Assembly (NCBI GenBank): GCA_947361355.1
Contig: CANAIR010000001.1
Location: 64,215 to 128,214 of the forward strand
Direction of reading: 5' to 3'
DNA length: 64,000 nucleotides
Origin: an uncultured Clostridium sp.
Lineage (GTDB): Bacteria > Bacillota > Clostridia > TANB77 > CAG-465
This document shows positions 15,306 through 17,023 of this stretch, piece by piece. Position 1 is the first letter of the stretch. Each line of letters starts with the position of its first letter. The notes below the pieces were generated by a model. The model was not told where the DNA came from and did no database searches. It saw nothing but the letters and a program-made list of their open reading frames with translations. The position numbers and the translations under genes were made by a program.

Positions 15306-15605
15306 TTATTTTTCTTTATTAATATTATTTATACACCTCCCTTCCTTTTTTATAGTCAAGTGATCTGCATTGCTTCTACAAAAGTTTTGACAATTTGGAT
15401 CTTTTTCTAACCTATTCTTAAAAAAGGTGGGCATTTCTCCCCATTCTAATTGAGGTGTTATTACAAAAGCTCTTGGAAGACCAGTCTTTACTGCTTCTTC
15501 AATATTATCATAATTTGGATAATACTTAAAGAGGTCTTCTTTTTTGTATATTTTACCAATTACTAGTTCCCGCCAATAAATTGTATACATCAAAAAATTT
15601 GACAT
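15306..15605 (-). CDS. HipS-like protein (resembles HipA N-terminal subdomain), copy 2
   Basis: 99-aa ORF with SD AAGGAGGA. IYWRELVIGKIYKKEDLFKYYPNY...MPTFFKNRLEKDP parallels the HipA N-terminus (QRVGEL..F.Y...W...FNFFDNLLPDSP, recalled from memory). Confidence 0.5.
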   Translation of the reverse strand: MSNFLMYTIYWRELVIGKIYKKEDLFKYYPNYDNIEEAVKTGLPRAFVITPQLEWGEMPTFFKNRLEKDPNCQNFCRSNADHLTIKKEGRCINNINKEK

Positions 15606-15654
15606 GACTCTTCCTCCTTAAATTTAATTTAGAAAACAATATTCTACAATTTAT

Positions 15655-15683
15655 ATTATAACACACATATTGTATTTTGTCAA
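15655..15683 (-). promoter_or_regulatory. Consensus sigma-A promoter for the 99-aa HipS-like gene
   Basis: The minus strand reads TTGACA (15683..15678), an exact 17-nt spacer, then TATAAT (15660..15655). An imperfect inverted repeat TTGTCATAATGTTGACAA overlaps the -35. Confidence 0.7.
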
Positions 15684-15736
15684 CATTATGACAACAACAT
15701 GTGGTATAACATTTATATTTTCAATGATATAGAAAA

Positions 15737-16054
15737 TTATTTTGAAATATAAAACGTAAATTTATCTACCATATTTTTACATTTTGTACTATTTATATAC
15801 TCTAATATATTTGATTCCATATTTTCACTAACAAGTTTAATTTCTTTTTTTATTATATTAATATTAGGTAATCTATCTTTTACAATATCTGGTAAATCTT
15901 TAGATATAAGTTTTACATTTGAAATTATTGATATAGGCATTCCCTTTTTTACAGCATAATCTAAATTTTCTATTTTAATTGATGAAATATACAAATTATG
16001 TTTTTTGGTAACGCTTAAAATATCAACATCATCCCATTTTATACTAATTATCAT
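15737..16054 (-). CDS. HipS-like protein (resembles HipA N-terminal subdomain), copy 1
   Basis: 105-aa ORF. Its ATG directly follows the kinase TAA, and SD GAGGTGG lies inside the kinase 3' end. LPDIVKDRLPN...ILEYINSTKCKNMVDKFTF parallels HipA LLPDSPIVRDRI...LLSEIGRDSVGAVTL. Confidence 0.5.
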   Translation of the reverse strand: MIISIKWDDVDILSVTKKHNLYISSIKIENLDYAVKKGMPISIISNVKLISKDLPDIVKDRLPNINIIKKEIKLVSENMESNILEYINSTKCKNMVDKFTFYISK

Positions 16055-17023
16055 TTATCTAACCACCTCATCAAGACATAAATCTTTCTCTATTATTTGT
16101 TTTCTATAATTAAAACATGGAATAACAAACTCTTTTAATTTATCTGGAAGTTTTGCTCCTATTCTTTCTTCAACATTTCTGATTGCCCCATCTATATCTA
16201 ATTTTTTTGAACATTTCTCAGCAAATTCCATACACACCTCAGAATCATCGCAAAGATAAAATAAAGTATCTTCCCAATCTAAATATGATTCATCTCTTTG
16301 CTGTTCAGGAACAACAATAAATTGATTTTGTAATTCAACAAATTTTTTCATTAAAGTCGGATTTTCCACCATATCATCAATCGCTTCAGCTGGTTGATCT
16401 AACATAAGTGAACATTCATTGTCATACATAGGTGATAATCTTGCCTCTGAATTTTGACCATCTGAATAAAATATTACTCCAAAATTTTCTGGATGTCTAT
16501 CTGTTGACATAGTAAAAATATCAAATATAGCCATCTTTGCTGTATCTTTACATAGTGAACTAACTTGTGATTTTGGTACATCATCATACCTACTTAATAT
16601 ATTGTAACTTTCAAATATATCATCTATACTACTTGTTAAATCATAACTATCAGTTGTATTACTTCCATTAAGTAATGATTTTGTATGTATTAAAGTCTCG
16701 TTTTCTTTTTCTAAAACATTTTTGGTATATACACCTTTTTCTCCTTTATATTTTATTAAATCATAATGAGCACATGGAAAATCAACCTGTTTTGCTAATT
16801 CTTCAAAAATTAATTCTGCATAATTTGTATATTCTACTCCTTCTTTATCTAAATTACTAGTTCTAATCATTATTTTTCCATCATCTAACTCAATCCAAAA
16901 CTTTTCTCTATTATGGCTTCCACCTGTTTCTCTAAATTTTTCTACTTCATTTTCATGCTCAAATTTATCTATATCTATATAACCTTCCTCATCTCTATAT
17001 TTTTCTAATTCTTCAATTTTCAC
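16055..17023 (-). CDS. HipA-family serine/threonine kinase core (HipT-like, lacks N-subdomain 1)
   Basis: 322 aa with a GTG start behind GGTGA. Gly-rich loop FRETGGSHNREKF, catalytic TDRHPENFGVI (D-x-H-x-x-N) and Mg-site LSPMYDN. Confidence 0.75.
   Translation of the reverse strand: MKIEELEKYRDEEGYIDIDKFEHENEVEKFRETGGSHNREKFWIELDDGKIMIRTSNLDKEGVEYTNYAELIFEELAKQVDFPCAHYDLIKYKGEKGVYTKNVLEKENETLIHTKSLLNGSNTTDSYDLTSSIDDIFESYNILSRYDDVPKSQVSSLCKDTAKMAIFDIFTMSTDRHPENFGVIFYSDGQNSEARLSPMYDNECSLMLDQPAEAIDDMVENPTLMKKFVELQNQFIVVPEQQRDESYLDWEDTLFYLCDDSEVCMEFAEKCSKKLDIDGAIRNVEERIGAKLPDKLKEFVIPCFNYRKQIIEKDLCLDEVVR

Follow-up and report, generated by a model that had tools for sequence, protein, structure and literature searches.

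How a Hip-family kinase might be controlled when its N-terminal lid is supplied twice, as two separate small proteins, and when no HipB accompanies it, is the question raised by a three-gene cassette in a 64-kb stretch of DNA (hereafter the window, to which all positions refer) from an uncultured gut Clostridia bacterium. Hip kinases are a model for kinase-driven persistence, and in the HipBST system the N-terminal lid of the kinase, split off as a protein of its own, becomes the antitoxin. The cassette consists of three open reading frames (ORFs) arranged head to tail on the minus strand, a core kinase followed by two small ORFs, here termed ORF B and ORF C, that resemble this lid. We assign a probability of roughly 0.6 to its being a toxin-antitoxin module of three genes that belongs to the HipA kinase superfamily and in which the new elements are a second stand-alone HipS paralogue and the separate control of expression of the two paralogues.

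The first ORF (16055..17023, minus strand; 322 amino acids (aa), GTG start) was shown by sequence comparison to encode a Hip core Ser/Thr kinase in which every catalytic motif is preserved and the N-subdomain 1 of HipA is missing. It scores 34.4 bits (E = 2.2e-8) with the Pfam family HipA_C (PF07804), above the gathering threshold of 30.5, and its best sequence match in the Protein Data Bank (PDB) is HipT of the E. coli HipBST system (7ab3/4/5). The match to the PADLOC model PDC-M03A is far stronger (E = 1.3e-29) and nearly full length, which suggests placement in clade XI, the clade of hipJS, hipIN and hipL; the cassette is thus probably a member of the HipI/HipJ group of the HipA kinase superfamily as judged from sequence. 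When the kinase family was compared to a full-length HipA alignment using hhalign, its residues 67-205 fell on HipA 200-336 (95.8%, E = 7e-9).

The catalytic motifs were assessed in an alignment of 23 homologues with identities down to 31%. The catalytic loop D175-R-H-P-E-N180 (codons 16484..16501, minus strand) aligns to HipA D309-x-H311-x-x-N314, with D175 and N180 invariant and H177 nearly so, and in the Mg-binding motif D201-N-E203 (codons 16415..16423, minus strand) D201 and E203 are invariant and N202 nearly invariant, D201 aligning to HipA D332 in LTPFYDI. The Gly-rich, ATP-binding loop E32-T-G-G-S-H-N-R-E-K41 (codons 16901..16930, minus strand), in which E32, G35, and K41 are invariant, corresponds by motif to HipA RISVAGAQEK, with an exact register that is uncertain as the loop is 1-2 residues longer. 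Within it, comparison with HipA S150 and HipT S57/S59 (PMC10627512) makes S36 a candidate for autophosphorylation. A preliminary description of this DNA had recognized the HipA kinase-core motifs by comparison with motifs of E. coli HipA, and these prove correct against the E. coli HipA sequence, which reads FRISVAGAQEK, ATDGHAKNF, and LTPFYDI. Its proposal that the protein begins near HipA residue 115 also agrees with the loop positions: since the Gly-rich loop spans residues 32-41 in this protein and 148-157 in HipA, residue 1 of the kinase corresponds to approximately HipA 115-130, and N-subdomain 1, about 110 residues, is absent.

ORF B (15737..16054, minus strand; 105 aa, ATG start) begins where the kinase ends, the TAA of the kinase being followed directly by the ATG of B with zero gap (GAGGTGGTTAGATAAATG), and a Shine-Dalgarno sequence, GAGGTGG, lies upstream of this ATG, so that B is translationally coupled to the kinase as first proposed. 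Structural modeling showed B to have the fold of HipS and of HipA N-subdomain 1. Its AlphaFold (AF2) model has a mean confidence score (pLDDT) of 89.4, and when this model was searched against the PDB with Foldseek the top 12 matches were all HipS or the HipA N-domain, with probabilities of 0.96-0.99 to the HipS chains 7vkb_B (0.99), 8ezr_A (0.98), and 7ab3_E. Template modeling (TM) scores reached 0.60/0.62 with 7vkb_B, 0.61/0.63 with 7ab3_E, and 0.62 with the HipA N-domain of 7czo. The B profile resembles HipA-N only weakly by sequence (P 0.004-0.18), and the evidence for B as a HipS-like protein is therefore structural.

ORF C (15306..15605, minus strand; 99 aa) follows B after a spacing of 131 nt and is predicted to be expressed separately. 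Profile comparison showed it to be a shorter paralogue of B: the two families align by hhalign at 98.2% (E = 2.9e-14), a hidden Markov model (HMM) of either family retrieves the other, and an internal segment of approximately 20 residues in B is missing from C. The AF2 model of C is less confident than that of B (pLDDT 81.5), and four of its top ten Foldseek matches are HipS or HipA-N, with TM scores of 0.33-0.48. A C profile matched a single HipA sequence weakly by hhalign (E = 0.06) but at the right location, and significance was gained with a HipA N-subdomain alignment built from the sequences in Table S1 of Gerdes, Baerentsen and Brodersen (2021, mBio; PMC8262856), to which the C family aligns colinearly over 77 columns (P = 8.9e-5). 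Compared with the whole 440-residue HipA, the C family (135 sequences) gave a single match, to HipA 1-70 (P = 3.5e-5). B is thus recognized as HipS-like from its structure and C, its paralogue, from its profile, which upholds the earlier suggestion that both small ORFs resemble the missing subdomain.

No meaningful match to B or C was found in scans of Pfam, NCBIfam, PADLOC, and PHROGs, and their alignment profiles gave only chance matches (ToxT, dynamin) among PDB sequences, with no HipS or HipA. An exhaustive profile search places them in a small-protein family of 168 representative clusters, nearly all of them stand-alone proteins of 77-130 aa. In one member of 421 aa, P0195, a single chain joins a Hip kinase core (NTDRHTEN, FDSEN) to a C-like domain that occupies residues 341-416. 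P0195 may be genuinely fused or may result from a frameshift error in a single metagenomic contig; as a fusion of kinase core and C-like domain it provides support of the Rosetta-stone kind for a physical partnership between kinase and small protein. In the sub-lineage of the window, residues 70-76 of C contain a conserved D-P-x-C-x3-C motif (DPNCQNFC), which is absent from more distant C-like proteins; where B aligns with it, only one conserved Cys is found.

The signals around C were shown to be those of a gene with its own optimal promoter and ribosome-binding site, which are predicted to act independently of the kinase and B. The promoter (15655..15683, minus strand) consists of TTGACA, 14 nt, TG, 1 nt, and TATAAT, a 12/12 match to the sigma-70 consensus with an extended -10 element, and confirms the consensus promoter that the preliminary description had ascribed to this ORF. 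Two perfect TTGACA-N14-TG-N-TATAAT sites were found in the window, against 0.01 expected. The Shine-Dalgarno sequence of C, AAGGAGG (15613..15619, minus strand), lies 7 nt before the ATG, and every related locus has a similar AGGAGG or GGGGG. Of the 14 three-gene loci, 12 have the perfect promoter between B and C, and the site in the remaining two scores 11/12. The signals of the kinase are weak, comprising the GTG start, a GGTGA Shine-Dalgarno sequence, and a best candidate promoter for the kinase-B transcript, predicted at 17044..17073 (minus strand), that scores 9/12; upstream regions of the kinase in other loci score only 8-10/12.

Homologues of the kinase occur in gut Clostridia that have not been cultured, among them Clostridium sp. 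CAG:921. A survey of gene neighborhoods, as the preliminary description had proposed, revealed the order kinase (320-370 aa), B (~104 aa), and C (77-99 aa) in no fewer than 14 separate loci, with kinase identities as low as ~30%, E-values of the small-protein HMMs down to 1e-49 at conserved loci, and B directly after the kinase in all three-gene loci. These loci fall in two contexts, in which the cassette lies either between holB-ricT-fdx and valS or between ftsH-PAP2 and lemA. Ratios of nonsynonymous to synonymous substitution rates (dN/dS) against two relatives lie at 0.18-0.20 (kinase), 0.19-0.29 (B), and 0.11-0.20 (C), whereas RicT shows 0.09-0.11, and by this measure all three cassette genes are under purifying selection.

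More distant relatives suggest how the cassette arose. Four loci (L015, L020, L021, and L022; kinase 30-39% identical) contain the kinase and one C-like gene, which in three of the four is preceded by the perfect promoter; in L022 the two genes overlap. Since these two-gene relatives carry the promoter before a single C-like gene, the order kinase, promoter, and C is probably the older arrangement and C the ancestral partner. We infer from this that B is the derived copy, which entered ahead of the promoter, next to the kinase, and then became translationally coupled; this corrects the earlier reading, in which the duplicated partner was the one under separate transcriptional control. A second pair of kinase and B-like genes (K2-B2) was observed right after C in five loci (L005, 5998-7340; L016, 5863-7193; L017, 5999-7341; L018, 5469-6817; L023, 5907-7256), with a terminator-like hairpin between C and the second pair in L005, L016, and L017. 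In the second kinase DRHxEN is changed to DR[KDE]xxD and DNE to HNT, so that both His and Asn of the catalytic loop and the Asp that binds Mg are missing, and it is predicted from these substitutions to be a pseudokinase with its own HipS-like partner.

The distribution of the cassette is patchy. Within the slot between fdx and valS, surveyed across L025-L058, it is present in L027, L044, L050, and L051, and it is found at contig ends in L047 and L048; it is absent, with fdx followed directly by valS, in L025, L026, L029, L035-L042, L046, and L054, which are of equal or closer relatedness, and unrelated genes occupy the slot in L030 and L033 and probably in L031, L032, and L034. Where the cassette is present, the kinase is 30-46% identical while RicT stays at 62-71%. 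This patchy presence and divergence of the kinase indicate an accessory, fast-evolving module and not a fixed housekeeping gene, and are typical of toxin-antitoxin or defence modules. A fixed housekeeping cassette, which synteny had suggested, was dropped as the metagenome scan revealed its absence from the same slot in many sister lineages. The slot was also considered as a defence island, and this too was dropped. Its occupants include glycosyltransferases and a PHP protein in L030 and a phosphate-binding protein with a permease-like protein in L033; the spacing between fdx and valS in L031, L032, and L034 is similar to that in L030 and L033.

Hip kinase families are defined by gene context, and short Hip kinases that lack N-subdomain 1, are followed by a downstream partner, and have no helix-turn-helix (HTH) component have been described as hipJS, hipIN, and hipL (PMC8262856). 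In hipJS, with 2 of 1,239 modules, the partner is HipS; in hipIN, with 14 modules, it is a HipS-HIRAN protein; and hipL is a single-chain fusion of kinase, HipS-like domain, and HIRAN (PMC8262856). Neither the placement of the kinase first nor the lack of HipB is therefore novel, and on these two points the claim of an undescribed variant made in the preliminary description does not stand. What survives of it is the duplicated HipS paralogue under separate control, as neither a pair of stand-alone HipS paralogues nor a conserved internal promoter was described for any Hip module in the literature searched. The cassette does not fit the gene contexts that define HipBST, hipIN/PDC-M03, and hipJS in the strict sense, where HipI, HipJ, and HipL were compared by description.

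The structurally characterized HipBST modules of E. coli O127:H6 and Legionella pneumophila (7AB3-5, 7VKB, 8EZR) resemble the cassette in being tripartite and in combining a core kinase with a separate protein of ~100 aa that has the N-subdomain-1 fold; HipT is the best PDB sequence match of the kinase and HipS the best structural match of B. The order hipB-hipS-hipT is, however, reversed in the cassette, the third component is a second HipS paralogue in place of the HTH protein HipB, the equivalent of HipS Trp65 is missing, C has its own optimal promoter, and the kinase is nearer to the PDC-M03A/HipI type than to HipT. HipJS is composed of a short core kinase and then a stand-alone HipS-like gene with no HTH protein, an organization shared by the cassette, and matches the two-gene relatives (L015, L020-L022). 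It has a single partner gene, whereas the cassette has two in the window and in at least 14 related loci, and no conserved internal promoter has been described for it, unlike the one present here.

HipIN, which corresponds to PDC-M03, shares the kinase-first order, a partner (HipN) that starts with a HipS-like domain, and the nearly full-length match of PDC-M03A to the kinase, but its partner carries HIRAN, for which no match was found in B, in C, or in 35 family members; neither B nor C matches any PADLOC model. In HipL a HipS-like module is likewise located C-terminal to the kinase, and P0195 resembles HipL minus HIRAN, whereas the parts of the cassette are separate genes, duplicated and without HIRAN. 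HipBA of E. coli K-12 has the same catalytic core and motifs, and its HipA residues 1 to ~100 are the counterpart of B and C. In HipBA this subdomain and the kinase form one chain, and the HTH protein HipB serves as antitoxin, while the cassette would supply the subdomain in trans, twice, with no HipB. The preliminary description had noted the lack of an HTH component, and the Pfam scan accords with it: none of the three cassette proteins matches an HTH family, nor does any called neighbor gene in L001-L009, the neighbors in L010-L023 lying outside the scan.

A mechanism can be proposed from HipBA and HipBST, with the action of HipS as described in PMC10627512 and PMC8262856, in which toxicity, neutralization, and the target of the kinase are all inferred. 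By analogy, the free kinase would phosphorylate an essential component of translation, most likely an aminoacyl-tRNA synthetase, and growth would stop. The HipS-like proteins would dock at the N-subdomain-1 site beside the Gly-rich loop and hold the loop, or the kinase, in an inactive state. Given its perfect promoter and strong Shine-Dalgarno sequence against the weak signals of the kinase, C would be made in large excess, while B would be produced at ~1:1 with the kinase through translational coupling. Antitoxin excess is the usual solution when the antitoxin gene is located downstream of the toxin gene. Loss of the C supply, through transcription shut-off, proteolysis, or possibly phage infection, would then release kinase activity, and the trigger could be stress or phage infection. 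Autoregulation of the HipB type is unlikely because no DNA-binding component was detected.

Several observations weigh against the toxin-antitoxin interpretation. The preliminary description had proposed testing all three ORFs with models of the HipA family, and these divide them: the 322-aa ORF passes HipA_C, but the HipA-N and Couple_hipA models of Pfam and NCBIfam miss B and C and match 0 of 35 family members at E<=10. The model of C has no individually significant match in the PDB (Foldseek, 350,542 chains). HipS Trp65 acts as a wedge beside the LLPEG motif that blocks HipT, although it is not universal in HipS (PMC10627512), and it has no counterpart here, the aligned position being Pro in C and Asn in B in alignments of low confidence. 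In most members of the kinase family the ATP-contacting Lys of HipA (K181) is replaced by Arg (R54). The cassette also lies amid housekeeping genes (holB, ricT, fdx, valS), with no relative of the kinase found in phage records, no relative found in IMG/VR, and one weak plasmid match, of 21.9% identity, in Rhodococcus. Finally, a single docking site cannot hold two N-subdomain mimics, so that the simple picture of two antitoxins is incomplete, and B and C must compete, act in sequence, or bind each other.

The last point leads to a more specific and rather unlikely model in which the paralogues form a competition switch. Here B would complete a HipA-like active enzyme, and C, by competing for the same site or by binding B, would keep the enzyme off; the output would be set by the B:C ratio, which would take the place of the HipB repressor, and the pseudokinase-B2 pairs might serve as decoys or buffers.

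Among the alternatives, phage defence by abortive infection is possible, if doubtful. Infection would remove or titrate one of the HipS-like proteins, and the kinase would halt translation before phage release. PDC-M03A, the best profile for the kinase (E = 1.3e-29), belongs to PDC-M03, a HipA kinase with a HIRAN protein that is listed in PADLOC as a defence candidate through its embedding in BREX, DISARM, or type I restriction-modification loci; the same role was proposed for hipIN and hipL by Gerdes et al. (PMC8262856), and the fast evolution and patchy presence of the cassette fit such a role. PDC-M03 is itself only a predicted candidate, however, and the partners in the cassette have no HIRAN sensor and match no PADLOC model. 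No defence genes flank the cassette, and where it is absent the same slot may hold glycosyltransferases or a phosphate-binding protein. This alternative differs from the toxin-antitoxin interpretation in trigger and benefit only, and the biochemistry would be the same.

It is improbable that the kinase is a non-toxic, host-integrated regulator that tunes a housekeeping process by reversible phosphorylation, with B and C as its regulatory subunits. The constant position between fdx and valS, held across lineages with RicT identities of 62-87%, the purifying selection on all three genes, the lack of an HTH autoregulator, and the searches that found no phage relative and a single weak plasmid match (21.9% identity) would all suit such a kinase. 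Yet many sister lineages have fdx followed directly by valS at this very slot, the cassette occurs in a second, unrelated context as well, and it evolves about twice as fast as the neighboring RicT by dN/dS; the characterized Hip kinases are, moreover, all growth-arresting toxins (PMC8262856). That the small ORFs have no relation to the kinase or are not genuine genes, and that their HipS resemblance is a matter of chance, would explain their failure to match any Pfam, NCBIfam, PADLOC, or PHROG family or to retrieve HipS or HipA from PDB sequences, but is very hard to reconcile with their retention beside the kinase at 14 or more distinct loci (HMM E-values as low as 1e-49), dN/dS well below 1, the uniform HipS or HipA-N identity of the top 12 structural matches of B, the fall of the C profile on HipA 1-70 of 440 residues, and the existence of a protein that fuses kinase and C-like domain.

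The boundaries of the cassette agree with those first described. Upstream, an intrinsic terminator (17155..17182, minus strand) ends an ORF of 67 aa (17201-17404, minus strand) that lies directly ahead of the kinase, and downstream a T-box leader (14906-15144, minus strand) precedes valS (NCBIfam NF009687, 989 bits). The 67-aa ORF has its own perfect TTGACA-N14-TG-N-TATAAT promoter (17447-17475, minus strand). It matches no family and is not present in any related locus, its exact sequence was not found in a collection of 15 billion proteins, and it appears to have been inserted in this lineage only.

In the interval that separates C from the T-box leader of valS (15145-15305, minus strand), no terminator was detected, and transcription from the strong C promoter may therefore enter the valS T-box riboswitch. 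On this far side of the slot, comparison of the window valS (12236-14707, minus strand) with the downstream genes of L004, L013, L014, L018, and L023 revealed two types of ValS in related lineages. The first is an 805-aa protein of the NF009687 type, 85-93% identical to ValS of the window, and the second a canonical protein of ~870 aa that is only ~30% identical to it, which suggests, from sequence comparison, that valS has been replaced at a conserved position. The adjacency of valS and metG was considered as a hint to the kinase target and dropped, the second context having no nearby synthetase.

For the Hip family, these loci amount to a natural experiment one step beyond HipBST, in which the lid gene has been duplicated, one copy has become coupled to the kinase, the other is under an invariant optimal promoter, and no DNA-binding regulator is present. 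They raise the questions of how a Hip kinase is controlled without HipB, whether N-subdomain mimics can act as competing activator and inhibitor, and what role the tandem pseudokinase-B2 copies may play. They also provide, for the annotation of gut Clostridia genomes, a name for about 170 clusters of 77-130-aa proteins that match no curated family tested, and a link from these proteins to PADLOC PDC-M03.

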